DNA from: Candidatus Parcubacteria bacterium
GTDB taxonomy: Bacteria > Patescibacteriota > Minisyncoccia > UBA6257 > HR35
Direction: 5' to 3'
Assembly (NCBI GenBank): GCA_026004535.1
Contig: BPJI01000001.1
Span: forward strand, 143,915 to 207,914
Length of the DNA: 64,000 nucleotides
This document shows positions 8,650 through 61,473 of this stretch, piece by piece (positions within the stretch are counted from its first letter, which is position 1; each line of letters begins with the position of its first letter). The notes under the pieces were generated by a model. That model ran no database searches. It saw nothing but the letters and a program-made list of their open reading frames with translations, and was not told the DNA's origin. Both the position numbers and the translations under genes were made by a program.

Positions 8650-8654
8650 CTAAT

Positions 8655-13062: not shown

Positions 13063-15985
13063 ATATTAGTATGTAGACAATTGCCGAAACGTGTTAACTA
13101 CCAGGATAGACTACTGGATATAATTACGAGGATTAATGATGAATAAATTAGGTCTATATCCTGGTAGTATTATTCGGATCATATCCGAATAAAAATATTG
13201 TCAGTGGTTGTTCGTATTATTTTATATTGATTTAGTTTTTGATATTTGAATCTTAAGTAAATCAAGCGAAGAGTTTGCAGATCTAATTTTAATCTTAATT
13301 ACTTTTTTATTCTGGAGTAACATTAGTAGTGTTGAATTTTATTGTTCGCTAAAATAATATATCCTAAACCAAATTGGTTTAGGTTTTAGGATGCAGTGCT
13401 GAGATGACAAGGTCCAGCAAAAAAGTTACAGGCTAAAGGTGGATGCCTTGGGAGGAAGAGGCGATGAAGGACGCGGCTAGGCTGCGATAAGCCTGGGGGA
13501 GGCGCCGAGCAGCCATTGATCCCAGGATTTCCGAATGGGGCAACCTGACTGGAGCAAACTCCAGTCACCTTCCTTTTAAGGAGGGGGCGAACCCGGGGAA
13601 GTGAAACATCTCAGTACCCGGAGGAAAAGAGACCAATAGGCATTCCCTGAGTAGCGGCGAGCGAAAAGGGAGGAGCCCAAACACTTGTTCCGCAAGGAAC
13701 AAGTGGGTTGTAGGAACAAGACTTCCCTTAAATGGAGAGGGATAAAAGACTATTAGTCGAAGCATCCTGGAAAGGAGCGCCAAAGAGGGTGAAAGCCCCG
13801 TAGGCGAAAATAGTCTTTTATCTTGCGTCTTGTTTCCTGAGTACCTCGAGGAACGAAAGCCTTGGGGGAAACAACCGGAACCATCCGGTAAGGCTAAATA
13901 CTCTTCCTCACCGATAGTGAACTAGTACCGCGAGGGAAAGGTGAAAAGCAGGCCGGTGAGGCCGGTGAAATAGAACCTGAAACCTTTAGCCTACAAAGAG
14001 CACAAGCCCGTAAGGGTGAGTGCGTGCCTATTGAAGAATGAGCCGGCGAGTTTAGAGTATTGCCTTGTCTAAGTGCGGTTAAGCACGAAGGCAGAGTGAA
14101 AGCGAGGGTTAAAAGCCCGCCATAGGCAATACTCTAAGACCCGAAGCCAGACGATCTTACCATGGCCAGGGTGAACTTCACCGAAAGGTGAGGGGAGGCC
14201 CGAACCCGTTGGTGGCTCAAAACCATGGGATGAGCTGTGGTAAGGAGTGAAAAGCTTATCGCGTCTGGGAATAGCTGGTTCTTCCCGAAATAGCTTTAGG
14301 GCTAGCGGCTGTTAATAAGCCTTTGGAGGTAGAGCACTGATGAATTGGTAAAGGCCGAAAGGTCAGCCAATTCGTCAAACTCCGAATGCCAAAGGTTTTT
14401 TCCAGCTAGTCAGTCTATGGGGGATAAGCTCCATGGACAAGAGGGAAACAACCCAGACCATTGGCTAAGGTCCCTAAATCCTAGCTAAGTGGAGAAGGCA
14501 GTGGTTTTTCTCAGACAGATAGGAGGTTGGCTTAGAAGCAGCCATCCTTTAAAGAGTGCGTAACAGCTCACTATCAGAGAAAAATCGCGCCGAAAGATAA
14601 ACGGGGCTAAGCTAGGTACCGAAGCCATGGACCCTGTACTAAAAATACAGGGTGGTAGGGAAGCATTCCATTCGCGTTGAAGGTCTATCCGCGAGGAGGA
14701 CTGGAGCGAATGGAAGAGAGAATGCCGGCATGAGTAACCGCAAATCGCCTGAGATGGGCGATCGCCGTAAGGTCAAGGTTTCCTTGGCAATGGAAATCAG
14801 CCAAGGGTTAGGCAGGACCTAAGGTGTAGCCGAAAGGTGAAGCCGATGGAAAGCCGGTTAATATTCCGGCCCCACCTTGCTTGGCGATGGGGTGACGAAG
14901 GAAATAAGGAAAAGAGGAGTAATGGTTATCCTTTCTGTTTGAGCTAGACTGGAGAAGGAGGAAAATCCCCTTCTCTGCCTTCAATGGTAACAGTCGTTCA
15001 AACAGAGAAGCCTGTTTTTGCAGGCAACTTTTCCGAAGAGCCTTCCAGGAAAAGCCTCTAAGCTTAAAAGCAAGGTGCCTGTACTGGAAAACCGACACAG
15101 GTGGCCGAGGCGAGTAGCCTAAGGCGAACGAGTGAGACCTCCTCAAGGAACTCGGCAAAAAAGCGGGCGTAACTTCGGGATAAGCCCTGCCAAAATGGAT
15201 GTTGGAGGTTAGAGATTAGAAGTTGGATTTAATTTTTCCAACTTTATTATCTTTAACTTCCGACTTCCAATTTTTGGCCGCAGCGAAAGTTCCCCTGGCG
15301 ACTGTTTATCAAAAACACAGCTCCCTGCTTAACTGGTTAACAGGATGTATAGGGGGCGACGCCTGACCTATGCCGGAATGTTAAAGTCTTGGGGTTTTGA
15401 GAAAATTTATTTTCTCAAGGCTCACGGGACTAAGCACCGGTAAATGTCGGCGGTAACCCTGACCGTCCAAAGGTAGCGCAATTCCTTTCCGGGTAAGTTC
15501 CGGAGCGCATGAAAGGCGTAACGACTGGGGGACTGTCTCGAGGAGGCGCTCGGTGAAAATGCAATCCCCGTGAAGATGCGGGGTACTGGCAGCGGGACGA
15601 AAAGACCCTAGGAGCTTTACTGGGCTCACTCATTGATTTTGGCTTAATGGTGCACAGCGTAGTGGGGAGGCGATGAAACTTTGCTTTCGGGCAAAGTGGA
15701 GCCGTCAATGGAACACCCACCATCATTAAGTTAAGGTCTAACCCAAGGCAGAACCTTGGGGACAGTGAGTGGGGGCCAGTTTTGCTGGGGCAGCAGCCTC
15801 CTAAAGAGTAACGGAGGCGTTCAAAGGTTGGCTTGTCCTGGATGGAAACCAGGATGAAAGTGTAAAGGCATAAGCCAGCCTGACTGCAAGGCTGACAGGC
15901 CGAGCAGAGGCGAAAGCCGGACTTAGTGACCCGACGGCTCTTTATGGAAAGGCCGGAGACAACGGATAAAAGTTACCCTAGGGAT

Positions 15986-16828
15986 AAAGGTTGAAATAAA
16001 CCTGTTGTCCTCCCTCTTGGTAACAAGAGGGTAACAAAAACGCCTTATAACGGTAGAGCCTGAAAGGGTAATACCGTGGGAAGTTAAGAAGGTAAAAATG
16101 AAAATAACTAAAGAACAAAAAGCAGCTTTGATTGGAATGATTTTAGGCGATGGTTATTTACAGTCAACTGGAAAGAAGAATGCCAGATTAAGATTAGAGC
16201 ATAGAGCGCAACATTATGAATATCTGGTTTGGAAAATGAAATTGTTGCCACAACTTTTTCAAGGTAAACCGAAAATAATAAAAAGACAACACCCCTTGAC
16301 AAAAAGAATTTATAGTTATGTTAGATGCCAATCAAATTCTTCGCCTTTGTTGGGAAAGTTAAGAAGATTGTTTTATCAAGATGGTCAAAAGAAAATCCCT
16401 GAAAATATAGAAAAACTGCTAATTGATGATCTTACATTTGCAATCTGGTTTTATGATGACGGTTATTATTCTAAAAAGGATGGTTATTGTGCTATATATT
16501 TGGGGAAGATTTCTTTTGCTGAAGCTAAACTTTTGAGTCAAGCAATAACCAATAAATTCAATCTTAAAAATAAAGTTGTTGATAAAAAGAATAAAGGCTT
16601 TATGTTGTACTTTCCAGCAAGTGAGAAGATAAAGATCAAAAATATTCTTCAAAAATATTTTGTTCCAATAATGAGTTATAAAATACCTTCTTAACCCCGT
16701 AACGACTGAAGTGTTAAGCTGAGAGACAGAGATATCTACTCTGTCTAAGACGGCGTTCTCATACAAAAAATGGAGATTAGACTCCATTTTTGTATGATGA
16801 AGATATAGTCTAATCCTTAAAGGATTGA
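15986..16828 (+). mobile_element. Group I intron in 23S rRNA at the GGGAUAA/CAGGC (omega-type, E. coli ~2449) site
   Basis: Exon sequence resumes as aacaggctggttgggcccgagagtccatatcgacgg; intron ends in G after a 5' exon U; contains a LAGLIDADG ORF. Confidence 0.75.
16098..16694 (+). CDS. LAGLIDADG homing endonuclease (intron-encoded)
   Basis: 198 aa; [11 protein letters not shown] motif plus a second half-site motif region; located inside 23S intron 1. Confidence 0.8.
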
Positions 16829-16953
16829 ACAGGCTGGTTGGGCCCGAGAGTCCATATCGACGGCCCAGCTCGGCACCTCGATGTCGGCTCACCCTAGCGC
16901 GGGGCTGAACAAGGTCCCAAGCGTCGGGCTGTTCGCCCGTTAAAAGGGTACGT

Positions 16954-16989
<36 letters not shown>

Positions 16990-17035
16990 TTATCTGCTGT
17001 CAGCGTTTGGAAGCCTGAGAGGAGCTGGACCTAGT

Positions 17036-17848
17036 AAATAATTGCTACTTCCTTGAGTAATCAAGGATGACAAAGTGGCTCATAACGGTAAAAGCCAGGG
17101 TTGGTCGGATAAACATCCTCACATAGACAGTCGGTCCCTGTCTATGCTATAATTTACTTGAGGACCGATGTTAACCTGAGGCTAATACCGTGGGAAGTCA
17201 ATCTAAAGCGAACAAAATTCATTTAGCTTATATTACTGGCTTTTTAGATGGCGATGGTAGTTTAATGATGCAAATTAAAAAGAGAAAAGATATTCAAAAC
17301 GGAAAAAGATTTAGTCAACTATTTGTTTTTATCAAGACAGTGGTCATGAAAGGCCACTGTTCTGGATTAGAAAGCAATTAGGCATCGGTTATATAAGTAG
17401 AAGGAATGATGGGATTACTGAATTAAGAATTAATGGATGTCGAACTATGGCAAGAATCTTAAAAATGCTGAAGCCGTATATAAAATTTAAAGTTAAACAA
17501 GTAGATATTATGATAAAATGCGGGCAACTTCTCCAAAGGAAGTTGAGCGAAAATAATTTAAAGAAAATAGCAGTGTATATCTATGAACTGCAGAAAGCCA
17601 ATTATGCAACTAGACGCAAGAAAACATTATCAGAAATTTGTCAAGCTTTAGGTTTGACCCCGTAACGACTGAGGCGAAAGCCGAGGGTTGAGATTTTTAT
17701 CTCAGCCAAGACGCCACCACCTACAACAAATGGAGGTGAGAAGTTAGAGATGGGGAATGAGTAATTAATTCTCGCGTCTCATCTCGCACCTTCATTAGTC
17801 GTAGGTTGAAGGTATAGTCTACTCCTTCTAGTAATAGAGGGGTTAGTG
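17036..17848 (+). mobile_element. Second group I intron in 23S rRNA, inserted in the sarcin-ricin-loop region (CCUAGU/ACGAGAGGACC)
   Basis: 5' exon ...ggagctggacctagt; 3' exon acgagaggaccggtctgg; shares ...taataccgtgggaagt... and ccccgtaacgactga...aagacg blocks with intron 1. Confidence 0.7.
17190..17665 (+). pseudogene. LAGLIDADG homing endonuclease split into two ORFs (frameshift)
   Basis: ORF 17190-17381 has YITGFLDGDGSL; ORF 17447-17665 continues a LAGLIDADG C-terminal half in another frame. Confidence 0.65.
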
Positions 17849-17927
17849 ACGAGAGGACCGGTCTGGGGCAGCCTCTGGTGTAGGAGTTGTTCCTCCAGGA
17901 GCATAGCTCCGTAGCTAAGCTGCCAAG

Positions 17928-17960
<33 letters not shown>

Positions 17961-18170
17961 CACCTCAAGATTAGGCTTCCCCATTAGGCCCCGGATAGAC
18001 CATCCGGTTGATAGGCCACAGCTGTAAGCTCCGTAAGGAGTTGAGGCAAGTGGTACTAATGGCCGATTGTTTTGCTGGACTTTGTCATCTCAGCACTGCA
18101 TCTTTTCCCCAATATACAGAACTATCAGAACTGGCGCAGAACTTACAGAATTGATTTATTAATTGCTTTT

Positions 18171-18296
18171 CCTCCCCGTGGTCGTATGTCTAGTCTGGAA
18201 CCACCCCTTACATTCCGAACAGTCAGGTGAAACAGACTAGAGCCGATGATAGTCCTTTAAGGGCGAAAGTAGGTACTGCGGGGAGGATTTTTAATT
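18171..18296 (+). rRNA. rrf: 5S rRNA
   Basis: cctccccgtggtcgtatgtctagtctggaaccacc...ccgaacagtcaggtgaaac...gtactgcggggagg with terminal helix pairing. Confidence 0.85.
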
Positions 18297-21276: not shown

Positions 21277-21350
21277 GGGCCTGTAGCTCAGTTGGTTAGA
21301 GCGCTGCCATGGCATGGCAGAGGTCGGGGGTTCGAGTCCCCCCAGGTCCA
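21277..21350 (+). tRNA. tRNA-Ala (anticodon GGC)
   Basis: gggcctgtagctcagttggttagagcgctgccatGGCatggcag...ggttcgagtccccccaggtcca; G3:U70 Ala identity pair present. Confidence 0.85.
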
Positions 21351-23207
21351 CTAATAACTTAAAGCATCGCAGTCAATTTCTTCAATTTCTATTCCTTCTA
21401 AAAGTTTTTTAAGGTTAAAATCAAGTTTTGGTTTAGTTTTAATAATTAATTCTAAAAAGAATCTTTTTCTAATTTTAAATGGCCGGGCAAAGATTGGACC
21501 AAAAATTTCTATTTCCGGGTTTTCTTTTTTTAGTCTTTCTTTAATGAAAAATAATTTCTCTTGAAGTTTTTTTAAATCTATACCCCCCTCTTTTAAAATA
21601 ACTAATCTCCGAAATGGCGGCAAACTATTAATTTCTCTTTCCTTTATTAATTCATTTATTATTTCTCCTGTTTTTATTTTTGCTTCAACTCGAGGATTAA
21701 TGATGTTACCAACTAAAAATATTTTTTCAGTTTTATTTTTAAAAAAATTTAAAATCCTGATAAATTTTTCTTTAACAAAAAAGTCCTGGGCAAAGTAAAA
21801 TTCATCAAAGTTATAGAAGAAAAAAGCATCAAAATTTTCAATTAGAGGATTAAGCAAAAGCAAACTCCCAATTAAAATATATCTTTCTTCTTGATTAAAC
21901 TCCTTGATTATTTTCTTACTTTCTTTTTCTAAAAAATAAATATTCTTTTTTTTATCAAAGTCATTATTTTCTGTCAGTTCTGCGTTAGTTCCACTTAGTT
22001 CTGCGTTAGTTATTGTTTTTATTAATTTATAAATAGCCTTAGCTCCCTTATGAGAAATTAAAAAACTCGATTTTTTCTTACAAAAAGGACAAATTTCGGG
22101 TAAGTTTTGATTTTTTAAACAATAAGAGCAGTAAATAAAATTTTCTTCAGCAGCCAAGAATTTACCGCAAATATTACAAGTTAAAGTTTGCAGACAAGAT
22201 TCACAAATCAAACGGTAGCCAAAAGTTTTTTCCGGAACAAAAATAACTATCTTCTTAAATTCTTTAATTTTATCTTCAAACTCTTTTTCTGAAATTCTTT
22301 CTATAACTACGAATTGTCGCGAATTATTATACGAATTCCCGCGAACATAACCTAAATTAAATTGTTGCGATTTATTCATGTTAATTTGTTTTTTTATTTG
22401 TGTTGATTCGTAAATTAATAAATCAAAAGAAGGTAAGTCAGAAATAGCTAAGTATTTTATCTTATTAATTTCAGCGAATTTTAAAAATATTTTGCGATAA
22501 TCAAAATAAGGTGGTTTGAAAAATTCTTTGTAAAAAAACGAGCCTTCATCATAAACAATTAATTGATCTAAATTTTGCCAAGGCAAAAATATTGAGTTTT
22601 TATTACCAATAAAGGTTTCTTGATTGGTGCTAGTAATTTTTTCTAAAAGAGAAAAGAAACTTTTTTGTTGGGGCAAAATTAAATTTGCTTGAGGCAAAAT
22701 CTGTTTTAAATATTCTAAATAATTTTCTTGAGGAACAATAATTAAACTTTTTTTATTTTTTAAAATATTTTCATTAAGTTGAGACAAAACTTCAATTTCA
22801 AATTTTTTATTTAATCCGCGTTGATCCGTGTTTGATCTGCGTAAATCAGTAGCCATCATTTTCTTATAAGGGAAAAATAAAGATAAAGCAGTAGCTAAAG
22901 AAATATTGCTGTAATTTTTTAACCAAAAAGCTAATTGAAGTTGCTGTTTAGTTAATAAAGGCGAAGGATTAATAATTTTTAAGACAGGTTTTAATTGAAG
23001 TTTTTTTTCTTTTAACAGGGCTCTTCTTTTTTCAATTGATTCAAGATTAAAAACATAACCTGGTATTTTTCTTTTTTTGAATTCAACTTCAACAATAGCT
23101 CCTCTTTTGATTTTCTTTTCTGAGAAATAAGAGAAAAAATCAGGCGCATTGCTCGGTAATCTAATTAGTGGTATAATATCTATAATTAAATATTTTGATT
23201 TAATCAT
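21351..23207 (-). CDS. priA: Primosomal protein N' (PriA)-like, with Cys4 zinc-binding region but no recognisable Walker A; carries two in-frame repeat inserts
   Basis: 618 aa; N-terminal 3'-DNA-binding-like region; LIIVPQENYLEYLKQ (helicase motif Ia-like); YDEGS; CESCLQTLTCNICGK...CSYC...CPFC; inserts ATDLRRSNTDQRGLN and ITNAELSGTNAELTENND. Confidence 0.65.
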   Translation of the reverse strand: MIKSKYLIIDIIPLIRLPSNAPDFFSYFSEKKIKRGAIVEVEFKKRKIPGYVFNLESIEKRRALLKEKKLQLKPVLKIINPSPLLTKQQLQLAFWLKNYSNISLATALSLFFPYKKMMATDLRRSNTDQRGLNKKFEIEVLSQLNENILKNKKSLIIVPQENYLEYLKQILPQANLILPQQKSFFSLLEKITSTNQETFIGNKNSIFLPWQNLDQLIVYDEGSFFYKEFFKPPYFDYRKIFLKFAEINKIKYLAISDLPSFDLLIYESTQIKKQINMNKSQQFNLGYVRGNSYNNSRQFVVIERISEKEFEDKIKEFKKIVIFVPEKTFGYRLICESCLQTLTCNICGKFLAAEENFIYCSYCLKNQNLPEICPFCKKKSSFLISHKGAKAIYKLIKTITNAELSGTNAELTENNDFDKKKNIYFLEKESKKIIKEFNQEERYILIGSLLLLNPLIENFDAFFFYNFDEFYFAQDFFVKEKFIRILNFFKNKTEKIFLVGNIINPRVEAKIKTGEIINELIKEREINSLPPFRRLVILKEGGIDLKKLQEKLFFIKERLKKENPEIEIFGPIFARPFKIRKRFFLELIIKTKPKLDFNLKKLLEGIEIEEIDCDALSY

Positions 23208-30325: not shown

Positions 30326-32106
30326 TTGATGAAGAAATTCTTTTTCAACCCCGGGGCAAAAGAGTTAAGACAAGTTATTTTAAGAATCAAAACATCTTTC
30401 TTTTCGTTTTTTCTTTAATTTTTCTTTCAGGCTTAATTTATTTTTTCTACCTACAGATTTTCTTTAAACAAAAATATTTAGCTCTTGAAAAAAATTTAAA
30501 GACAATTACTTATTTTGCTTTCCCTCCTCGAGGAAAAATTTTAGATTCCCAAGGAAAAACTTTAGCTGAAGCTGAACTTACTTTTGATGCCTATGTTGAT
30601 TTAAATAAAATTCAACAATTACCATTTCAACTTTCAGGTAAATTTTTTTATCGTGGTAGTCAATTAATTATAAGAGACATTCCTCGAGAGATTGCTTTAA
30701 ATTTTTTAACTAAAAAAATTGATGGCTTAGAGATTGTGCCTTCTTTTAAAAGAGTTTATTTAGGTCATGAAGAGATTGGTAGTCTAATTGGTTATGTTGG
30801 TTTTCCTTCGAAAAATGAAACAAAATATTATCAAGAAGAATTTGTTGGCAAATCAGGTCTTGAATTGGTCTATCAAGATTATCTTAGGGGCGAGTTGGGT
30901 GAAATTGTTTATCAAATTCAAAAAAATAATTTAAGGAAGATAAAAGAAACCCAACCGCAGCCAGGTAAAAATTTGGTTTTAACTATTAATTATGATTTCC
31001 AGAAAAAGGCTTATGAGTTAATTGATGATTATTTAAGAAGAAACAATTATAAAAAAGCTGCTTTTATAGCTTTAAATCCAAATACTGGAGAAATTATTTC
31101 CTTAATTTCCTATCCTTCTTATGACCCCAATTGGTTTTTAACTAATCCAGATAAAGTCAATCAAATTTTGCAAGACAAAAATCAACCTTTGTTTAATCGA
31201 GTCGTGAGTGGTCTTTATGCTCCTGGTTCAACAATTAAATTAATTGTTGCTGCCGGTGCTTTAGAGGAAAAAATTGTTAGTCCAGAGACAGAAATTTATG
31301 CTGCTGGCGAGCTTAGATTACCTAATCCTTATTTTCCTGGTACTTATTCTATTTTTAAAGATAATAAAATTCATGGTTGGACAAATATCTATAGGGCAAT
31401 TGCTGACTCAGTTAATATTTATTTTTATGTTGTTGGCGGTGGTTATCCTTATGCTAATGATAAAATTCCAATCAGACAAGGCTTAGGCATTGAAAGATTG
31501 AATAAATGGTGGCAAAATTTTGGTTTAGGTCAAAAAACAGGCGTTGATTTAAACGGTGAAAAATCTGGCTTTTTACCATCGCCTCAAACAAAAGCAAAGA
31601 ATATTTTTGACCCTACCTGGCGTTTAGGTGATACTTATAATGTCGCAATTGGTCAAGGAGATATTTTGGTTACACCACTTCAAATTGCTTTATGGACAAG
31701 TGCTTTTACAAATAATAAAATTTACCAACCATTTATCGTCAAAAAAATTATTGATGATCAAGGAAAAATTATTTTTGAAAGGCAGTCAAAAATTTTAAAA
31801 GAAAATTTAATCAGCGAAGAAAATTTAAAAATAATCCAGAAAGCAATGAGAATGACAGTTACTCAGGGAACAGCTCAAATTCTTAATGATTTACCAGTTG
31901 CAGTTGCTGGCAAAAGTGGAACTCCGGAAATTTTTGCTAAAAAGAAATTGAATGCTATTTTTACTGGTTATTTTCCATTTGAAAAACCCGAAGTTGTAAT
32001 GACTTTACTAATTGAAGATGTGCCAAGTGGTTCAGTCGCTACTTTACCTTTGTATAAAGAATTAGTCAAAGCTTATCTAGAATCAGAACATGGAAGAAAT
32101 TTTTGA
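30322..32106 (+). CDS. mrdA: Penicillin-binding protein 2 (elongasome transpeptidase)
   Basis: 594 aa; N-terminal TM; SxxK (GSTIKL), SxN (SVN) and KSGT motifs. Confidence 0.85.
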   Translation: MIDEEILFQPRGKRVKTSYFKNQNIFLFVFSLIFLSGLIYFFYLQIFFKQKYLALEKNLKTITYFAFPPRGKILDSQGKTLAEAELTFDAYVDLNKIQQLPFQLSGKFFYRGSQLIIRDIPREIALNFLTKKIDGLEIVPSFKRVYLGHEEIGSLIGYVGFPSKNETKYYQEEFVGKSGLELVYQDYLRGELGEIVYQIQKNNLRKIKETQPQPGKNLVLTINYDFQKKAYELIDDYLRRNNYKKAAFIALNPNTGEIISLISYPSYDPNWFLTNPDKVNQILQDKNQPLFNRVVSGLYAPGSTIKLIVAAGALEEKIVSPETEIYAAGELRLPNPYFPGTYSIFKDNKIHGWTNIYRAIADSVNIYFYVVGGGYPYANDKIPIRQGLGIERLNKWWQNFGLGQKTGVDLNGEKSGFLPSPQTKAKNIFDPTWRLGDTYNVAIGQGDILVTPLQIALWTSAFTNNKIYQPFIVKKIIDDQGKIIFERQSKILKENLISEENLKIIQKAMRMTVTQGTAQILNDLPVAVAGKSGTPEIFAKKKLNAIFTGYFPFEKPEVVMTLLIEDVPSGSVATLPLYKELVKAYLESEHGRNF

Positions 32107-32980
32107 AAAACCAAATTTAAATGAAGAAGAAAAATATTTAATCGAGCCATTTTTTACCAATTTAGATAAATCAGTTTATGGTATTTTGTTTTTGCCTCCA
32201 GAAGTTGTTGGTGCCTTGTGTTCTCGCGCTTCAAGAGCTAAAGAAGATTTGAGAATTGTTTTCCTTAAAGAATTTGTTAAACCATTTTTAGAAACTGAAT
32301 ATGGTAAAAGTTTGAAAAATTTTATTGATTTTTTACACCAACATCCAGCCGAAGTTTTATTTAACAATCCTAAAGCTAGAGAATTTTATATTAAATGGTT
32401 AGCTGAATATGGTGATGATTCAATTGCTCAAATGGCTGGTACTCATTTAGTTTACTCATCTTTATCTCAAATTGCTATTAAGCATATTGAAAATCAAAGA
32501 ATTGGTCTAGCTCCAATTGAAAAATCAACTCGTTATGTTGATTATTCTCTTAAGATTAATAATCATTATCTTTATTTTACACCGCCAGAAATTGAAAAAC
32601 TTGGTTTGAAAGAGGAATATGAAAAAACAATAGACAATATTTTCGAAACTTACATTTTTCTTTTTCAAAAATACCTTGATTACTTAAAGATTAAATATTC
32701 TGAAGAAAAGGAAATTGTTTTAAAAACAAAAGTTTTTGATACGATTAGAATAATTTTACCTTTAAGTACATTAGGACAATTAGCTCTTTTTGGCAATGGC
32801 CAAGCATTTGAATATTTAATTAATAGATCATTAGAGCATCCTTTGGCAGAAATAAGATGGTTAGGTCAAAGGGCTTATGAAGAATTAAATAAAATTATTC
32901 CGGCATTTTTAAGAAGAGTTGAAAAAGAAGAAAGTAAAGAATATAGAAAATATTTAGGCTCAAAGAAGCCAAAAAATTAG
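32090..32980 (+). CDS. ThyX-like (FAD-dependent thymidylate synthase fold) protein with a degenerate RHR motif
   Basis: GALCSRASRA resembles the ThyX N-terminal AARVSY block; IAIKHIENQRIGLAPIEKSTRY aligns to the ThyX RHR...SGRY block but reads NQR. Confidence 0.4.
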   Translation: MEEIFEKPNLNEEEKYLIEPFFTNLDKSVYGILFLPPEVVGALCSRASRAKEDLRIVFLKEFVKPFLETEYGKSLKNFIDFLHQHPAEVLFNNPKAREFYIKWLAEYGDDSIAQMAGTHLVYSSLSQIAIKHIENQRIGLAPIEKSTRYVDYSLKINNHYLYFTPPEIEKLGLKEEYEKTIDNIFETYIFLFQKYLDYLKIKYSEEKEIVLKTKVFDTIRIILPLSTLGQLALFGNGQAFEYLINRSLEHPLAEIRWLGQRAYEELNKIIPAFLRRVEKEESKEYRKYLGSKKPKN

Positions 32981-33082
32981 AGAAATTCAATTTTGAAGAT
33001 CGATAAGACGCTTAAGACGTCAATACTCTTAAGATAAAGTTAAATTAATCGAATATGATCCCTGAAGGTGAAGATAAGATAA

Positions 33083-33949
33083 TTGCTGGACTTTTGTATC
33101 CTGAAGTCTAAAGAACCTTATGAGAAAATTTTAGCTAAAGTTAAGAAGCCTTTCTTTATCAGAGAAAGAAGAAAGATTTTAGAAAAAGTTTTGAAAGAGA
33201 GAAAATATCGCTGGTATAAAGTGCCTCGAGCTTTTGAAAATGTTTATTTAAGATTTGAAATTTTATTAAATATTGGTGCTTGGCGAGATTTACAAAGACA
33301 TCGAATGCAAACTCAATATCATCAAAAATTTACACATTGATAATGGCTTTGATGTCCCTGAAGAATTAAAAGAAATTGGTTTGGAAGAAAAATTTATCTT
33401 CAGCTATTAAAAAATTAGAAACCTTTTATCAAAAAATTAAAGATCCAGATTTAGCTCAATATGCAGTTAGTTTTGCCCATCGCGTTCGTTTTATTCAATA
33501 TCAAAATTTAAGACAATTTTTTTGGGAAACAGAACTAAGAACAACTCCCCAGGGCCATCCTGATTATCGTAAAATCGAGCAAGAAAAAGCAAAAATAATT
33601 CAAAAAATTTATCCTTTGATTGCTAAATATTTATTAGTTGATTTTCAGGAATATGAATTTGCCCGACGCGAAAGCATTAAAAAAATAAAAGTCAAAGAAG
33701 AAGAATTAAGAAAGATGATATAATTATTTTAGGTCAAAATTAAATTTATTTTTTAAGATGAATAATCATATATATAATTTATTTTCTCAATTGGTTCAAA
33801 ATCGAAGAAGTATTTATCGGATTCAAAAGTTTTATTTAAAAGATGCTCGAGGTTGTAAAAAATGCCTGGATTTTTGGAAGCAAGTTTTAAAGCAAAAAGA
33901 AGCAGAGACAAAAGAACTTATTAATTTAATCAAGGCTCATAAAATCTAA
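33083..33949 (+). pseudogene. Frameshifted fragments of a second ThyX-like domain (RHR motif present)
   Basis: ORF 33083-33340 ends ...GAWRDLQRHRMQTQ...; continuation GFDVPEELKEIGLEEKFIF is in another frame; ORF 33376-33723 is in a third frame; 32981-33082 is stop-rich. Confidence 0.45.
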
Positions 33950-35802: not shown

Positions 35803-35879
35803 CAATGTCGTTAATTAAGTTATTGAAATTCAAATTCGCGTAGATCTGCGTTAAAATTCGCGTAGATCCGCGTTAATTC

Positions 35880-52979: not shown

Positions 52980-53354
52980 ATGTTAAAATTATTATTCATG
53001 GTAAAAGGTTTCGAAGAACTGATTGTTTTTCAAAAAGCAAGAGATTTAACTAAACTTATTTACAATTTAACTAAAAAAGAAGAGTTTAAGAAAGATTTTG
53101 GTTTAGTTGATCATATCAGGCGGGCATCAGTTTCAATAATTTCTAACATTGCTGAGGGTTTTGAGCGAGGAACAAAAGAAGAACTTCCACATTTTCTTTA
53201 TATAGCCAAAGCTTCTTGTGGCGAAGTAAGGGCTCAAATAAAAGTTTCAGGGTTTAAAGGTTTAAAATATAAGAAAGTAAAACCTAAAGATGTCGAAGAA
53301 TTCGATAGAATGTTAGAAAAAATTTTAGCCAAAAGACAAACGCTAATCATTTAA
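52980..53354 (+). CDS. Four-helix-bundle protein (TIGR02436 family: 'S23 ribosomal'/rRNA-IVS protein, also the Avd family of DGRs)
   Basis: 124 aa; ...IVFQKARDLTKLIYNLTKK...SNIAEGFERGTKEELPHFLYIAKASCGEVRAQI... family signature. Confidence 0.65.
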   Translation: MLKLLFMVKGFEELIVFQKARDLTKLIYNLTKKEEFKKDFGLVDHIRRASVSIISNIAEGFERGTKEELPHFLYIAKASCGEVRAQIKVSGFKGLKYKKVKPKDVEEFDRMLEKILAKRQTLII

Positions 53355-55480: not shown

Positions 55481-55753
55481 CTACCCGGATGAATACCGGA
55501 TTGTTTTACCCTGATGGTTACCGGAATAGATTACCCGGATAGTTAACCGGATTATATTTACCCGGATGATTACCGGATAAAAAATATTTTATAAATCATC
55601 CGGTTTAAATCCGGGTGACTTATCCGGTTATAATACGGGTAGAAGTTGTTATCTGGTTTATATCCGGGTATTTGTAGTATTTACATCCGGTTTGAATCCG
55701 GGTAGTTATATCCGGTTCATATCCGGGTAGTATTATCCGGTTTAAATCCGGGC
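55481..55753. repeat. Intergenic inverted ('palindromic') array of ~20 TACCCGGAT/ACCGGATAA units with ~11-12 bp phasing, upstream of nrdJ
   Basis: Left arm ctacccggatgaataccggattg...ttacccggatgattaccggataaaaaat; centre ~55595; right arm inverted atccggtttaaatccgggtga...atccggttcatatccgggtagtattatccggtttaaatccgggc. Confidence 0.85.
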
Positions 55754-55813
55754 AAAAATATTTTCTACCGCCCGCGTTTGAAAAGGTCTTCAATTAGAAT
55801 TTTTATTTAAAAG

Positions 55814-58800
55814 ATGCCCAAAAGAACATTGACTTCTAATCAGGTTGTTTTTAAAACAAGTTCAAATTTTTTAAAAATCCAAAGATTTTTTACTAAAGAA
55901 AGAGTGCACCCTTATGATGAGGTTAAATGGATAAAAACAACAGCTGAAATTCCAGGTTCTAATTTTAAAATGGAAGATGTGGAATTTCCTGATTTTTACA
56001 GTCAAAATGCAATTAATATTATTGCTTCTAAATATTTCAAAATCAACAAAGGTAAACAAGAAAAAAGTTTAAAAGAACTAATTGATCGAGTTGTTAAAAC
56101 GTTTAAAAAATGGGGTTTAGAACAGGGTTATTTTAATGAAAAAGAAGCCAAAATTTTTGAGGATGAACTAACTTATATCTTGCTTCATCAATATGCTGCT
56201 TTTAATTCTCCTGTTTGGTTTAATTTCGGTGTTGAAGGAAGAAGTCAACAAGGCGCAGCTTGTTTTATCTTAGATGTTCAAGATAATATGGAATCAATTT
56301 TGGATTGGATTAAAACTGAAGGAATGATTTTTAAAGGAGGCTCAGGCTCTGGAGTTAATTTGTCAAAATTAAGAGCCAAAGGAGAACCTCTTTCAACTGG
56401 CGGTGCTTCTTCTGGAGTTATTTCTTTTATGAAAGCAGCCGATGCAGTTGCAGGAAGTATAAAATCTGGTGGAAGTACGCGTAGGGCGGCAAAGATGGTG
56501 ATTTTAAATGCTGATCATCCTGAAATTATGGATTTTATAAGAGTTAAAGCTGAGGAAGAAAATAAAGTTAGAGCCTTAATGGAGGCAGGTTATGACATGA
56601 CTGATCTAAATAATCCTTTGTGGCAAAATATTTTCTTTCAAAATGCTAATAATTCAGTTAGAATTCCTGATGATTTAATGGAAGCAGCAATGAAAGATGA
56701 AAAATGGCAGACTTATTATCGAACAACAGGTAAGGCTTCACAAGCTTATAAAGCTAAGGATATTTTGTGGGAAATTGCTAAAGCTGCTTGGGAATGTGGT
56801 GATCCAGGAGTTCAATTTGATGACATTATTCAAAAATGGCATACTTGTAAAAATTCAGGACGAATTGAAGCAACCAACCCTTGTAGCGAATATATATTTC
56901 TTAACTGGACAAGCTGCAACTTAAGTTCAATCAATCTTTTGAAATTCTTAAAAGAAGATGGTAAGTTTGATATTCCTGCATTTTTGCATACTGTCAGAGT
57001 AATGTTTTTAGCTCAAGATATTATGATTTCAAAAGCTGATTATCCTCATCCAAAAATTACTGAAGAAACTAAAAAATATCGAACAATTGGTTTGGGTTAT
57101 ACTAATTTAGGCGCCTTGATTATGGCTTTGGGTCTTCCTTATGATTCTGATGAAGCAAGAAATTTGGCTGCAAGTATTACTGCCTTAATGACCGGGGAAG
57201 CCTATAAACTTTCAACCCAAATTTCAGCTAAACTTGAACCATTTCCTGAATATGAAAAAAATAAAGAACCAATGTTGGAGGTAATGGAAATGCACCGAAA
57301 AGCTCTATTGAAATTAATACAGAACTTTACAGAACTAAAACAAAACTCGCAGAAAAAACACAGAACTGACGGAACTAACACAGAACTTACAGAAAATATC
57401 GCCGCAGAACATACAGAACTAATACAGAACTTGCAGAAAAATTCAGCTAGTTCTGCGTCATATTCTGTTAGTTCTGTTACTGAGGAAATTTTAGAAAAAG
57501 CAAAAGAAGTTTGGGATGAAGTAATTGAAAATGGAAAAAAATATGGCTTCAGGAATGCTCAAGCAACAGTAATTGCGCCTACTGGTTGTTTAGTAGGGAA
57601 TAGTTTAATTTCAACTGAATACGGTTTAGTTCCGTTAGAAACACTTGGGAATCCATTGGGTTATAAGTGGCAAGATTTAAATATTGAGGTGATGACCGAT
57701 GAAGGACCACAATTAGCTACCAAATTTTATGTTAATGGTTTAGTTGAAACTAGAAAAATAGTTACTAAAAATGGTTATGAAATCGTAGGCACTCCAGAAC
57801 ATAGAATTAAAGTTTTCGATAAAGAATCTGGTGAGCTTAAATGGAAATATTTTGCTGATATCAAAGAGGGAGATATTGTAGCTTTAGAAATGAATACAAT
57901 TTTTGGCAGTCCTAAGCCAATCGAACTTCCACCTTTACCAGAACTTCATTGGAATCAAGATTTTGATGCCAAAGTTCCAAGACATATGAATGAAGAATTA
58001 GCAGAAATAGTTGGCTATTTTATGGGCGACGGCAGTCTACATTCTAAAGGTTTAAGATTTTGCGTGACCCAAGAAGATAAAGATGTGATTGAAAGATTAA
58101 GATATTTAATTAAAAGTCAATTTAATCTTGATATATTTTTAACCCAGAGGCTTGGTTATATAGAAGTTAGCGTAAACTCAGTTCCTCTTGTTTTATGGTG
58201 GGAAGCTTGTGGTTTTAAAAAGAAACAAAAGAAAGTTGGTAAAGGCTGGGAACCTCATATTCCTCTTACTATCCTTTATTCTAACGATCGAAAAATTTAT
58301 ACTGCTTTTTTAAGAGGTCTTTTCGAAGCAGATGGTACTGTCTGGAAGGATTCAAAAACTCCAGCTCTTTCGACTCATAGCAAAGAATTTCATGACCAAA
58401 TAAAATATTTACTTTTAGCTTTAGGAATACCAACAAAATCTAAAATTGGAATTTCAGGTTGGGACAAGAAAAACCTCTATGTTCTTTATGTGAAAAATAG
58501 AGAATATGCTAAAAAATTCGGAGAAGAAATTGGTTTTATTGGAGAAAGAAAAAATAAATTACTTGAAAATATCACCACAAAACCTAGTCAAATAAAAATG
58601 GATCAAGTTTATCTTTCTCAAAATCTTGTTGAAGCCATAACACCTCTTTTAACCAAAAGGGAAAGAGACAGTTTAAGGTTAGAATTTAAAAGAAAAAATG
58701 CTATTACTAGAAGTTTTGCTTTAAGGATTTTAGATAAAGTTGAAAATAAAGCCTTTAACTATTATGTAAATAAAATTTTCTTTGATGTTGTCAAAACAAA

Positions 58801-59944
58801 TGAATCAGCTGGAGAAAATCTTACTTATGACCTTTCTGTTCCAACAAATGTAACTTATATTGCTAATGGTTTTATCAGTCATAATACAATTTCTTTTATG
58901 ATGGATGCAGATACAACTGGAGTTGAACCCGATTTTGCTTTAGTTAAAATGAAACAACTTGTTGGTGGTGGTTATATGAAGATTGTAAATAGAACTATTC
59001 CTCTTGCCTTAAGAAGACTTGGCTATAGCGAAAAAGAAATTGAAGATATTGTTAAACATTTAGAAGAAACTCAAAATATTGAAACAGCGCCTCATCTAAA
59101 ACCAGAGCATTTATCTGTTTTTGATTGTGCTATTAAGCCACCCGGAGGAAATAGATATATTCATTGGCTAGGACATGTAAAAATGGTTGCTGCTATTCAA
59201 CCATTTATTAGCGGTGGAATCTCGAAAACTTTCAATATGCCTAATGAGACTTCAATTCAAGAAATTTATGATGCCTACTTTACTGCTTGGAAATTAGGAA
59301 TTAAATGTTTTGCTGTTTATCGTGATGGTTCAAAAGCAACTCAGGCTTTATACAGTGAAAAAAAGGAGAAGAAAAGCAAAGAAAAAATTGAAAGACGAAA
59401 ACTACCTTTAGTTAGGCAATCTGAAACTCATAAATTTTCAATTGCCGGCCATGAAGGTTACTTAACCTATAGCATTTTTGAAGATGGTTCTTTGGGTGAA
59501 ATTTTCATTCGTATGTCAAAACAAGGAAGTACTTTGGCTGGTCTTTTGGATGCTTTTGCAATTTCAGTTTCGATTGCTCTTCAATACGGTGTGCCTTTAA
59601 AGGAATTGGCAAGTAAATTTGTTTATATGAGATTTGAGCCAATGGGAATTACTAATAATCAAAAAATACCAATTGCAAGTTCAATTATTGATTATATTTT
59701 TAAATATCTTGGTTATAAATTCTTAACTCCAGAAGAATTAAAAGAAATAGGTTTAGAAGTTAAAGAGGAATCTATCTTAAAAGAACATCCAAGATTAATT
59801 GAATCAAAATTTGAGTTAGATCCGGTGAAGACAGAAAATAATTTATCTGGTCCGCCATGTAAATATTGTGGTGGAATGACGACTCGAACTGGTAGTTGTT
59901 ATACTTGTTTAGAATGTGGTGAAACTTCTGGCGGTTGTAGTTAG
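55814..59944 (+). CDS. nrdJ: Class II (adenosylcobalamin-dependent) ribonucleotide reductase NrdJ, interrupted by a LAGLIDADG intein and carrying an in-frame ACAGAACT-repeat insert
   Basis: 1376 aa precursor; SPVWFNFG, ACFIL, ATNPCSEY, C-terminal Cys-rich tail; host junction VIAPTG|C...SHN|TISFMMDADTTGVEPDF restores the conserved APTGT...GVEP block. Confidence 0.85.
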   Translation: MPKRTLTSNQVVFKTSSNFLKIQRFFTKERVHPYDEVKWIKTTAEIPGSNFKMEDVEFPDFYSQNAINIIASKYFKINKGKQEKSLKELIDRVVKTFKKWGLEQGYFNEKEAKIFEDELTYILLHQYAAFNSPVWFNFGVEGRSQQGAACFILDVQDNMESILDWIKTEGMIFKGGSGSGVNLSKLRAKGEPLSTGGASSGVISFMKAADAVAGSIKSGGSTRRAAKMVILNADHPEIMDFIRVKAEEENKVRALMEAGYDMTDLNNPLWQNIFFQNANNSVRIPDDLMEAAMKDEKWQTYYRTTGKASQAYKAKDILWEIAKAAWECGDPGVQFDDIIQKWHTCKNSGRIEATNPCSEYIFLNWTSCNLSSINLLKFLKEDGKFDIPAFLHTVRVMFLAQDIMISKADYPHPKITEETKKYRTIGLGYTNLGALIMALGLPYDSDEARNLAASITALMTGEAYKLSTQISAKLEPFPEYEKNKEPMLEVMEMHRKALLKLIQNFTELKQNSQKKHRTDGTNTELTENIAAEHTELIQNLQKNSASSASYSVSSVTEEILEKAKEVWDEVIENGKKYGFRNAQATVIAPTGCLVGNSLISTEYGLVPLETLGNPLGYKWQDLNIEVMTDEGPQLATKFYVNGLVETRKIVTKNGYEIVGTPEHRIKVFDKESGELKWKYFADIKEGDIVALEMNTIFGSPKPIELPPLPELHWNQDFDAKVPRHMNEELAEIVGYFMGDGSLHSKGLRFCVTQEDKDVIERLRYLIKSQFNLDIFLTQRLGYIEVSVNSVPLVLWWEACGFKKKQKKVGKGWEPHIPLTILYSNDRKIYTAFLRGLFEADGTVWKDSKTPALSTHSKEFHDQIKYLLLALGIPTKSKIGISGWDKKNLYVLYVKNREYAKKFGEEIGFIGERKNKLLENITTKPSQIKMDQVYLSQNLVEAITPLLTKRERDSLRLEFKRKNAITRSFALRILDKVENKAFNYYVNKIFFDVVKTNESAGENLTYDLSVPTNVTYIANGFISHNTISFMMDADTTGVEPDFALVKMKQLVGGGYMKIVNRTIPLALRRLGYSEKEIEDIVKHLEETQNIETAPHLKPEHLSVFDCAIKPPGGNRYIHWLGHVKMVAAIQPFISGGISKTFNMPNETSIQEIYDAYFTAWKLGIKCFAVYRDGSKATQALYSEKKEKKSKEKIERRKLPLVRQSETHKFSIAGHEGYLTYSIFEDGSLGEIFIRMSKQGSTLAGLLDAFAISVSIALQYGVPLKELASKFVYMRFEPMGITNNQKIPIASSIIDYIFKYLGYKFLTPEELKEIGLEVKEESILKEHPRLIESKFELDPVKTENNLSGPPCKYCGGMTTRTGSCYTCLECGETSGGCS
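57305..57485. repeat. In-frame inverted array of ACAGAACT units inside nrdJ
   Basis: acagaactttacagaactaaaacaaaactcgcagaaaaaacacagaactgacggaactaacacagaacttacagaaaat...acagaactaatacagaacttgcag then inverted agttctgcgtcatattctgttagttctgtt; encodes ...HRTDGTNTELTENIAAEHTELIQN... Confidence 0.8.
57587..58885 (+). mobile_element. Intein (433 aa) with LAGLIDADG homing-endonuclease domain inside nrdJ
   Basis: Begins Cys (CLVGNSLIST...), internal YFMGDGSL and LRGLFEADGTV LAGLIDADG motifs, ends ...YIANGFISHN followed by Thr. Confidence 0.85.
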
Positions 59945-60822
59945 TGTTTTCTTCTTCGACCATGAAAAGCCTGGTGAATTTCTTTTAATTCCCGATTAGT
60001 TAAATGAGTATAAATTTGTGTTGTTTGTAAATTTTTATGGCCTAATAAAAGTTGAATTGCTCTTAAATCAGCTCCAGCCATTAATAAATCGGTTGCAAAT
60101 TGATGTCTTAAAGTATGGGGAGTTATTTTCTTTAAGATACCTGCTTTTTTTGCATAATATTTAATTATTTTTTCAACTCCTCGTGGTGTTAATCTTTTAA
60201 AAGCTGAACTTTTGCTTAAATTAACAAATAAAGCTGCTTCTTTATCGGTTCTTTTTTCTAAATATTTCTTTAAATAATATTTAGCAATCTCGGAAAGAAA
60301 GACTAATCTAATTTTTCCTCCCTTACCTTTAACCCTAATTTCTTTTTTATTTAAATCTATATCTCGATTCAAAGAACAAAGTTCAGAAACTCTAAGCCCA
60401 GTACTGAATAAAGTTTCTAATAAGGCTCGATCTCTTAAAGATTTTAAATCTTCACCTGAAGCAGAGTTTAAAAATCTATTTAATTCTTCATCAGTTAAAA
60501 CATTGATTTCTCTTTCAGGAATTTTGGGCAGTTCAATTCTTAGGGGATCATAAATATTAATTTCTTTTTTTTGTAAAAATCTTAAAAAATTTCTAAGAGC
60601 AATAAGATAATAAGATTGAGTTTTTAAAGACAATCCTTTTTTGTTTAAAAATGAACGAAAATTATAAATAGTTTCGTCATCAATTTTTTTAAATTTATTT
60701 TTTTCTAGCCAGTCTAAAAAAAATTTAATTTTTCTCAAATATTCTTTAATTGTACCCCTGCTTCTTCCTTTTTCTAAAACTAAATAATCTTCGTATTTTT
60801 GAAGATATTCCTTTAAGTCCAT
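59941..60822 (-). CDS. xerC: Tyrosine recombinase XerC/XerD family
   Basis: 293 aa; R...HxxR...Y catalytic pattern (HTLRHQFATDLL...LLGHKNLQTTQIYTHL). Confidence 0.85.
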   Translation of the reverse strand: MDLKEYLQKYEDYLVLEKGRSRGTIKEYLRKIKFFLDWLEKNKFKKIDDETIYNFRSFLNKKGLSLKTQSYYLIALRNFLRFLQKKEINIYDPLRIELPKIPEREINVLTDEELNRFLNSASGEDLKSLRDRALLETLFSTGLRVSELCSLNRDIDLNKKEIRVKGKGGKIRLVFLSEIAKYYLKKYLEKRTDKEAALFVNLSKSSAFKRLTPRGVEKIIKYYAKKAGILKKITPHTLRHQFATDLLMAGADLRAIQLLLGHKNLQTTQIYTHLTNRELKEIHQAFHGRRRKH

Positions 60823-60844
60823 AAATTATATACCCCGATTATAA

Positions 60845-61181
60845 ACCGGATAATAATTTTTTCTACCTGGATGCAAACCGGATAAAACCACCCGGATTTA
60901 GACCGGATATAATTACCCGGATATAAACAGGATATAATTACCCGGATGTAAACCGGATAAGTTACCCGGATTATAACCGGATGATTTATAAAATATATTT
61001 AATCCGGTATTTATCCGGGTAATCTATCCGGTAAGTTATCCGTGTAAATATAATCCGGTATTCATCCGGGTAGATATTTTAATCCGGTGTTTATCGGGGT
61101 AATCTATCCGGTTGACTATCTGGGTAATATTTTAGTATCCGGTAATAATCCGGGTAATCTATCTGGTAGATATCCGGGTAA
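60845..61181. repeat. Second intergenic inverted array of CCGGATAA-family units between xerC and rpsO (divergent promoter region)
   Basis: Left arm aaaccggataataa...cacccggatttagaccggatataattacccggatataaacaggatataattacccggatgtaaaccggataag...; centre ~60985; right arm inverted atccggtatttatccgggtaatctatccggtaagttatcc... Confidence 0.85.
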
Positions 61182-61209
61182 TAAATTTTTATGTTATAAT
61201 TATTATACA

Positions 61210-61473
61210 ATGTCAAAAGTTAAAGAAAAAATTCAAGCTATAATTCAAAAATTTGGTAAGCACGAAAAAGATACTGGTAGCCCTGAAGTTCAAATTGCCT
61301 TATTGACTGAAGAAATTTTAAATATTCAAAGACACTTGGCTCAAAATAAGAAAGATAAACATTCTAAGCGAGGATTAATTTTAAAGATAGTTCAAAGAAG
61401 AAAACTTTTAAATTATCTTAAAAAAGAATCTTATACTCGTTATCGAAAAATAATTGAAGAGCTAAAACTATGA
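61210..61473 (+). CDS. rpsO: 30S ribosomal protein S15
   Basis: ATG at 61210 (MSKVKEKIQAIIQKFGKHEKDTGSPEVQIALLTEEILNIQRHLAQNKKDKHSKRGLILKIVQRRKLLNYLKK...); the ORF-track start at 61087 is a read-through of the repeat array. Confidence 0.85.
   Translation: MSKVKEKIQAIIQKFGKHEKDTGSPEVQIALLTEEILNIQRHLAQNKKDKHSKRGLILKIVQRRKLLNYLKKESYTRYRKIIEELKL

Follow-up and report, generated by a model that had tools for sequence, protein, structure and literature searches.

Palindromic arrays of phased CCGGAT half-sites, a probable mobile element family lying between genes and in frame within genes of hot-spring Parcubacteria

Clusters of the hexamer CCGGAT, arranged as large inverted arrays between genes and as smaller inserts within open reading frames (ORFs), are described here from a 64,000-nt stretch (hereafter the window; G+C 31%) of KatS3mg096, a metagenome-assembled genome of Candidatus Parcubacteria. 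With a further 6.7 kb of sequence, in which no arrays were found, about 71 kb of this genome was covered. We consider that the arrays belong to a family of non-autonomous, selfish, mobile palindromic elements specific to a clade of hot-spring Parcubacteria, a reading to which we give a probability of roughly two in three. An earlier interpretation, made from the letters of the window without database searches (the sequence-only reading), had taken the intergenic arrays and the in-frame peptides of TopA and of a protein with LTD domains to be copies of one DNA element. Our results agree with it on this point.

Anatomy of the arrays

The window contains 53 occurrences of CCGGAT where 9.4 would be expected; none of 100 shuffles attained as many, and all but about six of the occurrences fall within four loci. 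Thirty-four units of the form CCCGGAT-N3-6-ACCGGAT were counted in the window. Each arm of an array is a tandem run of one to seven units with a period of 24-25 bp, and each unit holds two conserved half-sites of 7-8 bp, TACCCGGAT and ACCGGATA. Half-site starts lie 11 bp apart inside a unit and 13-14 bp apart from unit to unit, rather than at the uniform 11-12 bp that had first been proposed. The consensus derived from 304 units of the window and related loci is (A/T)TTA-CCCGGAT-N4-ACCGGAT-A. Its half-site positions are conserved at 0.86-1.00, figures that are somewhat inflated by the one mismatch allowed per half-site, and its spacers are essentially free.

The polarity of the arms was convergent in all clusters (>>>..<<<); forward units come before reverse units and the opposite order was never met. 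Among 57 two-armed copies, 38 have abutting arms, separated by 0-2 nt. The outermost units are inverted copies (TTACCCGGAT ... ATCCGGGTAA), so that terminal inverted repeats are present. The symmetry does not extend to the spacers, however. The 4-nt spacers of mirror units showed an identity of 0.10-0.22, compared to 0.28-0.36 under random pairing, and matching is limited to the half-sites. Because mirror spacers are not complementary, the "palindrome" is an inverted arrangement of phased short sites without a true base-paired hairpin. Conservation confined to the half-sites, as in protein-binding sites, points to a protein acting in trans that would recognise them.

The two largest copies in the window lie between genes. 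Array A (55481-55755) occupies the wzy-nrd spacer and consists of four forward units (55484-55578), a centre (55579-55597) and six reverse units (55598-55752). Array B (60831-61181) lies between the start of an xerD-like gene (60822) and that of rpsO (61210) and has six forward and seven reverse units around a centre at 60983-61001. That these are real inverted arrays, as the sequence-only reading held, is supported by the excess of CCGGAT and by the folds of their single strands, with energies of -59.1 kcal/mol for array A (z = -6.7) and -76.1 kcal/mol for array B (z = -8.0); both are long imperfect palindromes. The start of array A and the end of array B stand as first given, while the end of A moves from 55753 to 55755 and the start of B from 60845 to 60831. 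The two arrays have a centre in common, 19 nt long and AT-rich, in opposite orientations. When array B is reverse-complemented, array A can be aligned to it collinearly at 77% identity, and the alignment takes in the spacers close to the centre. The two arrays are thus paralogous copies of one source and not independent growths. All six frames are closed in both.

Two smaller copies are carried in frame by genes. The topA copy (7402-7518, minus strand) supplies residues 378-416 of the protein (39 codons, LPGYKPDEINYPDINRISSSYPGNLSGNNPGSISGNNQG). The LTD copy (11250-11396, plus strand) supplies residues 331-379 of a surface protein, in the linker from its second LTD domain to its C-terminal membrane anchor. 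Their placement in frame had been recognised within slightly wider bounds (7399-7518 and 11250-11398), but they had been described as one-armed; each has three forward and two reverse units, around a degenerate centre in the LTD copy. Exactly one of the six frames is open across each copy, and the two inserts do share the near-identical peptides LPGYKPD..NYPD...PGNLSGN to which attention had been drawn.

CCGGAT arrays also occur as parts of larger copies. In 35 of the 61 clusters found in metagenome loci, the CCGGAT module is nested inside outer inverted arms of C[GA]C[GA]GA[CT] half-sites with 10-11 bp spacing, and only six matches to these outer half-sites were in the wrong orientation. Composite copies in JGI loci have asymmetric spacers, AGAATAATTTA and TAAAAATAYARAAA, that are common to different host genes, indicating that the composite is itself a propagating family. 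The nesting possibly arises through repeated insertion at the centre.

Presence in relatives and behaviour in coding sequence

The nearest relatives found were bacterium HR35 (TopA 83%, XerD 75%), two Logan contigs (TopA 88%) and JGI metagenome contigs (XerD 90%). The four insertions that could be tested are all lineage-specific. The rpsO-xerD spacer is 387 bp long in the window compared to 38 bp in one relative (L164) and 24 bp in HR35, and the wzy-nrd spacer is 395 bp long compared to 64 bp in L164 and 71 bp in HR35 (L166); in L164 and HR35 the flanks of both spacers could be aligned on either side. TopA orthologues at 72-78% identity are 531 aa long and are without the 39-residue insert, which takes the place of a four-residue turn between two conserved strands (KYIF-xxxx-FYFL). 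This comparison had been proposed with the first interpretation, and its outcome shows that the TopA insert is not coincidental low complexity. The dprA and topA genes overlap in HR35 and in locus L162; in the window an array of about 258 bp, made of a sister motif, C[AG]CGGAT, lies between them. The HR35 orthologue of the LTD protein has an unrelated linker and no CCGGAT at that position.

Presence and absence run both ways between relatives. L164, whose XerD is 90% identical, carries between tRNA and wzy a CCGGAT array that the window lacks, and Mur-ligase-like and alpha/beta-hydrolase genes carry inserts in L157 and L148 that are missing from the window orthologues. The L164 array (18044-18255) is bordered by ACGCGGAT and ATCCGT units. 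The corresponding spacer of the window is occupied instead by a four-helix-bundle gene (52980-53354; TIGR02436, the Avd / 23S-rRNA-IVS-protein family).

The insertion site in TopA is filled differently in other lineages, with a direct array of ACGCAGAC in L162, a palindromic CACGGAC/GTCCGTG array in HR35 and yet another insert in P0019. Ahead of the window copy stands TGCAGAAGT, similar to the TCGCAGACT with which the inserts of L162 and HR35 begin. This likeness suggests one old TopA insertion whose modules were later exchanged or lost; alternatively, the site could be an insertion hot spot. The TopA proteins of related lineages (P0012, P0018, P0021, P0022, P0026) have further lineage-specific inserts elsewhere, for example RTRDDTNLYEPKTNQHEPSSREFVSS, YFTANSYEHSREPMRTSFLDANSCEHLREPMRTS and YADLRGQYADLRG, which look like translations of other repeat families. 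The whole TopA clade is without C-terminal zinc-ribbon domains (PF01396).

A metagenome search with an exact three-half-site pattern returned 40 loci, 39 of them at 25-35% G+C. The metagenome loci contained 61 clusters, or 66 with those of the window and L164, and by flank homology these represent at least 44 distinct sites. Other searches returned little. A scan of genome contigs with a 15-base pattern, which was too loose, gave chance single matches only (L001-L080). No match to the element was found in viral contigs, phage records or plasmid records, the Rfam scan gave no match at the arrays, and a word-indexed protein search with the concatenated insert peptides gave none. An exhaustive HMMER search with the 51-aa LTD insert returned five matches, of which the two relevant ones (P0243 and P0244) are small ORFs called on arrays.

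When genic copies were defined as those in a stop-to-stop open frame, 32 of 65 clusters lay in long open frames, and every one of these was read in one and the same frame. The left arm then encodes (x-L-P-G-[YFL]-K-P-D)n and the right arm (S-G-[NK]-H-P-G-[NK]-x)n. Some of the open-frame copies bridge neighbouring genes or lengthen N-termini. Intervals between units were divisible by three in 81 of 93 cases among genic copies (87%) but in only 54 of 115 cases among intergenic copies (47%; Fisher p = 9e-10), and genic copies hold a 24-bp period. The restriction to one frame, together with the multiple-of-three period, makes selection for coding visible.

The host proteins are unrelated housekeeping enzymes, mostly cytoplasmic. 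They include enolase, MurC/D-like ligases, MnmA, SfsA, PBP2, transketolase and PPDK, as well as phosphoglucomutase, RtcB, P-type ATPases, TGT and Sua5. In several of them a Pfam domain is split by the insert, as in TopA, where the Topoisom_bac match is interrupted. An AlphaFold model of TopA had a mean predicted local distance difference test (pLDDT) score of 86.9, and its sole segment below 50, residues 379-414, was the insert, which is predicted to form a disordered loop at the tip of a beta-hairpin between strands 365-375 and 418-428. Orthologous genic copies from different samples differ from one another by whole units. MurD-like ligases have one or three left units (L123 compared to L138 and L141), and the TGT genes of L132, L143 and L159 have six, five and four right units. 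In one locus (L144:3679-4770, and likewise in L153) a HicB/HicA-like toxin-antitoxin pair is flanked by two separate palindromic arrays.

The remaining copies in the window are a decayed copy and three sister-motif arrays, making four clear copies, one decayed copy and three sister arrays in all. In the decayed copy (about 13095-13200, upstream of the 23S rRNA gene) CCGG is altered to CCAGG, CTGG or CGAGG. The sister arrays have C[AG]CGGAT or CGCGAAT-like half-sites and follow the unit design of the CCGGAT family, with two half-sites per unit. The largest, at the dprA-topA junction (8654-8913), has paired C[AG]CGGAT half-sites with seven forward and eight reverse matches; dprA now terminates within it (...AADLRGYN*), its C-terminus rewritten. 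The other two are short and one-armed. One (22812-22850, minus strand; ATCCGCG / ATCCGTG / ATCTGCG) lies within an intact priA ORF, directly after the 3'BD domain, and the other (35828-35878; ATTCGCG-TAG-ATCYGCG twice) lies between a tRNA and a KH-domain ORF.

Arrays A and B also touch the ends of adjoining genes. The ORF at 61087-61473 reads through the right arm of array B and gives rpsO an N-terminal extension (61087-61209, plus strand) that is spurious, as had been suspected. The true start is the ATG at 61210, which yields an S15 of 87 aa with an S15 domain match, the same length as the rpsO products of L164 and L166. At the other end of array B the outermost units (60838-60865, minus strand) supply a promoter-like TAGAAA-16-TATAAT and a GGGG run close upstream of the xerD-like start, and the native 38-bp spacer of that gene has been displaced by the insertion. 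Upstream of array A a promoter-like site that is conserved in L164 (55408-55437, plus strand; TTGACA-18-AATAAT) matches the consensus at 11 of 12 positions. If it functions as this match implies, array A would sit in the nrd 5' leader.

Origin and spread of the arrays

Spread of the arrays by transposition would account for paralogous copies at unrelated sites and for their presence and absence in both directions between relatives. Master copies would be duplicated and placed at new sites by an enzyme supplied in trans, and the half-sites look like the binding sites of such an enzyme. Most insertions into genes would be lost. Those in loops, linkers or termini would survive when open in the frame that encodes a Pro/Gly/Ser/Asn-rich hydrophilic peptide, (LPGxKPD)n followed by (SGxHPGx)n; its tolerance in genes would have two grounds, a frame whose product is a flexible hydrophilic loop and the loss of all insertions other than those in loops, linkers or termini. 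After insertion, copies may gain or lose whole units in the manner of a variable-number tandem repeat, decay by point mutation, and combine with or be replaced by sister modules.

The ORFs of the window that were scanned comprise housekeeping genes, toxin-antitoxin components and LAGLIDADG homing endonucleases; none is a transposase, and the copies are therefore taken to be non-autonomous. Two ideas were rejected. The XerD-like recombinase that adjoins array B is a conserved single-copy housekeeping gene whose synteny is kept in relatives without the array. The repeated YIF...YIF in TopA, which could be mistaken for a target duplication, is an ancestral feature of the beta-hairpin and is present in orthologues without the insert.

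Several points weigh against a mobile element. No transposase or autonomous copy was found within the roughly 71 kb of the genome or beside arrays in the loci examined. No target-site duplication could be established with AT-rich flanks and relatives too diverged; four comparisons of empty and filled sites, and the composite spacers, gave only ambiguous AT-rich repeats (TTA(G), ATAAATT, and TA beside the core). An inverted layout of half-sites that lacks a true hairpin would be compatible with a host protein-binding array as well. The TopA site may carry one old insertion with turnover of its modules and not independent insertions. Finally, the JGI loci were picked by the repeat pattern itself, so that their copy density and genic fraction are not unbiased, and the definition of a genic copy takes in bridges that join neighbouring genes and N-terminal extensions.

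One copy has cargo. In L142 (2591-4255, minus strand) an enolase gene contains a GxxExxY / PD-(D/E)XK_3 nuclease domain between a left and a right CCGGAT arm (3340-3423 and 3827-3856). The nuclease domain is complete (PF13366, E = 1.7e-28; TIGR04256, E = 7.6e-30) and has the D...E-x-K motif, and arms, nuclease and enolase form one open frame of 554 aa. The same enolase carries a second, outer-type insert, TADERRYNADERGY, and the allele is present at 99% identity in JGI and ENA assemblies. These observations admit a variant in which the CCGGAT arrays are the ends, that is the binding and cleavage sites, of a new kind of mobile element. Its autonomous form would carry the GxxExxY nuclease, arrays without cargo would be deletion derivatives, and the element would survive in essential genes without splicing by keeping arms and cargo in one ORF, as in the L142 enolase. 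The nuclease is no known transposase, and jackhmmer found no further GxxExxY cargo in any of the examined loci; we consider this variant unlikely.

The features that suggest binding by a protein could also reflect a function for the host, with the arrays serving as platforms for a sequence-specific DNA-binding protein of nucleoid-organising, regulatory or centromere/iteron-like type. The half-sites are conserved while the spacers are free, their 10-11 bp phasing is close to one helical turn, dyad symmetry is restricted to them, and arrays A and B adjoin promoters (promoter-like by consensus). A platform of this kind would not be expected to change position among relatives, to interrupt essential ORFs or to occur in decayed copies, however, and there are eight arrays in the 64 kb with no par or rep genes adjoining. 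A host platform is accordingly quite improbable. Growth in place from short local seeds, through replication slippage or template switching as in a palindromic minisatellite, would require no transposition at all. It is in keeping with the whole-unit differences between orthologous MurD-like and TGT copies and with arms of one to seven units, but it does not explain how the same two half-sites, polarity, spacers and centres came to lie at at least 44 unrelated sites. Neither singleton enrichment (about six isolated CCGGAT compared to 9.4 expected for the whole window) nor single-unit proto-arrays at the four empty sites inspected were seen, and we assign growth in place a low probability.

Two further proposals are less probable still. 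Half-sites acting as DNA-uptake signals could spread array alleles by biased uptake and recombination in competent cells of the Candidate Phyla Radiation (CPR), and both dprA and recA are present in the window. The DNA uptake sequences (DUS) of Neisseria and the uptake signal sequences (USS) of Haemophilus form inverted pairs and prefer certain reading frames. The window has no surplus of isolated half-sites outside arrays, however, CCGG outside arrays is not unusual, and a bias in uptake leaves the first appearance of 100-350 bp blocks at new sites unexplained. In the other proposal a protein repeat module (PGxKPD / SGNHPGN) is exchanged between genes, in the manner of PARCEL, with the intergenic arrays as decayed coding remnants. 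The single peptide frame of all genic copies and the surface location of the LTD host speak for it. They are outweighed by the mostly cytoplasmic hosts, by the predicted disorder of the TopA insert, by the intergenic arrays, which exceed all other copies in size and have no open frame among the six, and by a polarity and half-site conservation at the DNA level that go beyond any peptide constraint. Assembly artefact or coincidental low complexity has a negligible probability. Arrays lie at contig ends in L136 and L140 and so can break assemblies, but the element is found inside contigs of many independent assemblies and samples (JGI, ENA and Logan), the array-bearing enolase allele recurs at 99% in JGI and ENA assemblies, and the CCGGAT excess is far above chance. 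The possibility of an artefact, which the sequence-only reading had itself raised, is thus answered.

Comparison with known systems, neighbouring features and significance

According to the first interpretation, no described element behaves in this way. There are in fact precedents. Rickettsia palindromic elements RPE-1 to RPE-10 (Ogata et al. 2000, 2002) are palindromic repeats in frame inside housekeeping genes, as recounted in PMC10969869 and PMC2996958. Like the arrays described here, RPEs are palindromic repeats, about 100-150 bp long, that are scattered through a small genome, both between genes and in frame within unrelated housekeeping genes. In both, the hydrophilic peptide that is encoded is conserved and falls in non-structured or surface parts of the host protein, and for neither is a transposase known or a target duplication clear. 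The present family shares the general character of this class. Its copies are many and dispersed, measure about 100-350 bp and have dyad symmetry; its genic copies keep frame and have orthologues without the insert (TopA, the Mur-ligase-like protein and the alpha/beta hydrolase); and its inserts lie in unstructured or surface segments, in TopA (by AlphaFold, the one protein modelled) and in the LTD linker before the membrane anchor. It differs from RPEs in occurring in Parcubacteria of hot springs, in arms made of tandem 24-25 bp units with two phased half-sites (one to seven units per arm), in its non-complementary spacers and in its tiered modules, with outer C[GA]C[GA]GA[CT] arms around inner CCGGAT. 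Because of the different host phylum and motif we do not file it as an RPE family member; it is set apart by these features and not by sequence comparison, and likeness to RPEs in sequence is not expected.

Protein-coding palindromic repeats in Wolbachia (Ogata 2005) and Methanocaldococcus jannaschii (Suyama, Lathe and Bork 2005), both as reported through PMC2996958, are likewise palindromic in-frame insertions in assorted genes. Those of M. jannaschii show that such repeats occur in a thermophile; the hosts are unrelated to Parcubacteria. The literature that was searched held no report of elements of this kind in CPR/Patescibacteria. To our knowledge, the Wolbachia and M. jannaschii repeats do not form phased half-site arrays. 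The present family, its host phylum and its modular phased-motif architecture look undescribed.

Other classes of short repeat share some features with the arrays. [quoted passage not shown] MITEs have terminal inverted repeats with target-site duplications and usually a cognate insertion sequence (IS), however. The present element is array throughout and not unique sequence between terminal repeats; its flanks gave only ambiguous candidates for a target-site duplication, and no cognate IS was found with it, there being no transposase in the window or beside arrays in examined loci. Repetitive extragenic palindromic (REP) sequences and REPINs, which are mobilised by REP-associated tyrosine transposases (RAYTs) of the Y1 HUH type (PMC3733652), are short palindromic units that occur in many copies and in inverted doublets; a single-copy enzyme, whose gene is flanked by REPs, moves them in trans. 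A REP is a true hairpin of 20-40 bp with a GTAG or CGTC tag and is almost always extragenic, and none of this holds for the present element: the tag is absent from the unit consensus, mirror units do not pair as a hairpin, and no RAYT was seen in the roughly 71 kb of genome.

In form the arms also recall the ends of larger transposons. Several transposase-binding sites are present at each end of Tn7 (TnsB sites), phage Mu (L1-L3 and R1-R3) and IS21 (terminal repeats); the sites are directly repeated, the two ends are inverted and conservation is confined to the sites. Those ends flank kilobases of cargo, whereas the arms described here mostly abut and only one cargo-bearing copy was seen.

Some assignments were tried and set aside. 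A CRISPR array, in which direct repeats of 24-48 bp alternate with unique spacers of about that size, does not fit spacers of 4-7 nt, inverted arms and the lack of an Rfam match. Iteron- or parC-type clusters, which occupy one or a few conserved positions per replicon beside rep or par genes, resemble the arrays in form only, through their phasing; there are eight arrays in 64 kb, some of them in ORFs, at positions that are not conserved. DUS/USS, short motifs in strong excess as scattered single copies, were discarded on the count of about six CCGGAT outside arrays compared to 9.4 expected for the whole window, and PARCELs, palindromic amphipathic repeat coding elements (PMC2996958) that form amphipathic repeat domains in tandem inside genes for surface proteins, on the mostly cytoplasmic hosts and on a peptide that is Pro/Gly-rich and predicted to be disordered. 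Restriction-site avoidance was also dropped; CCGG occurs 60 times outside arrays compared to 58 expected under a Markov model.

Other genes of the window also appear to be interrupted. The Rfam large-subunit match of the 23S rRNA gene (13416-18050) stops at 16024, and 23S-like sequence returns ahead of the 5S gene (at 18174). Since a LAGLIDADG_2 endonuclease ORF (16098-16694) lies in between, an intron or intervening sequence seems to break up the 23S rRNA. The class II ribonucleotide reductase (55814-59944) contains an intein with a LAGLIDADG_3 endonuclease; its orthologue in L164 (10873-15909) has two inteins and measures 1678 aa compared to 1376 aa in the window. The thyX gene (32090-33723, Thy1 domain) is seemingly split into ORFs at 32090-32980, 33083-33340 and 33376-33723; disruption of the gene, duplication or a further insertion could account for this. 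An Rfam match to HPnc0260, a Helicobacter antisense RNA (21315-21470, minus strand), scores 61.7 bits where the gathering score is 59; it lies over the 3' end of priA and a tRNA and is probably spurious.

If the arrays are mobile, selfish DNA residing within genes that encode proteins would extend from obligate intracellular Alphaproteobacteria and one archaeon to the ultra-small, genome-reduced CPR bacteria, in a lineage in which essential enzymes (TopA, enolase, Mur ligases, PPDK, RtcB, TGT and PBP2) bear the inserts. Lineage-specific indels, and misplaced starts, stops and fusions in the annotation of CPR genomes, are explained by the inserts; the rpsO extension, the dprA C-terminus and a TruB-acylphosphatase ORF fusion are examples. 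The inserts also mark out, as a natural map, where conserved enzymes tolerate insertions. Handles on the mechanism of mobilisation are offered by the phasing of the half-sites, the freedom of the spacers, the strict polarity, the tiering of modules and the one copy that bears a nuclease. Should the unlikely variant with a GxxExxY nuclease prove true, a first candidate enzyme would be at hand for the question, now 25 years old, of the means by which RPE-like protein-coding palindromes move, and a very widespread, uncharacterised protein family would gain a function.

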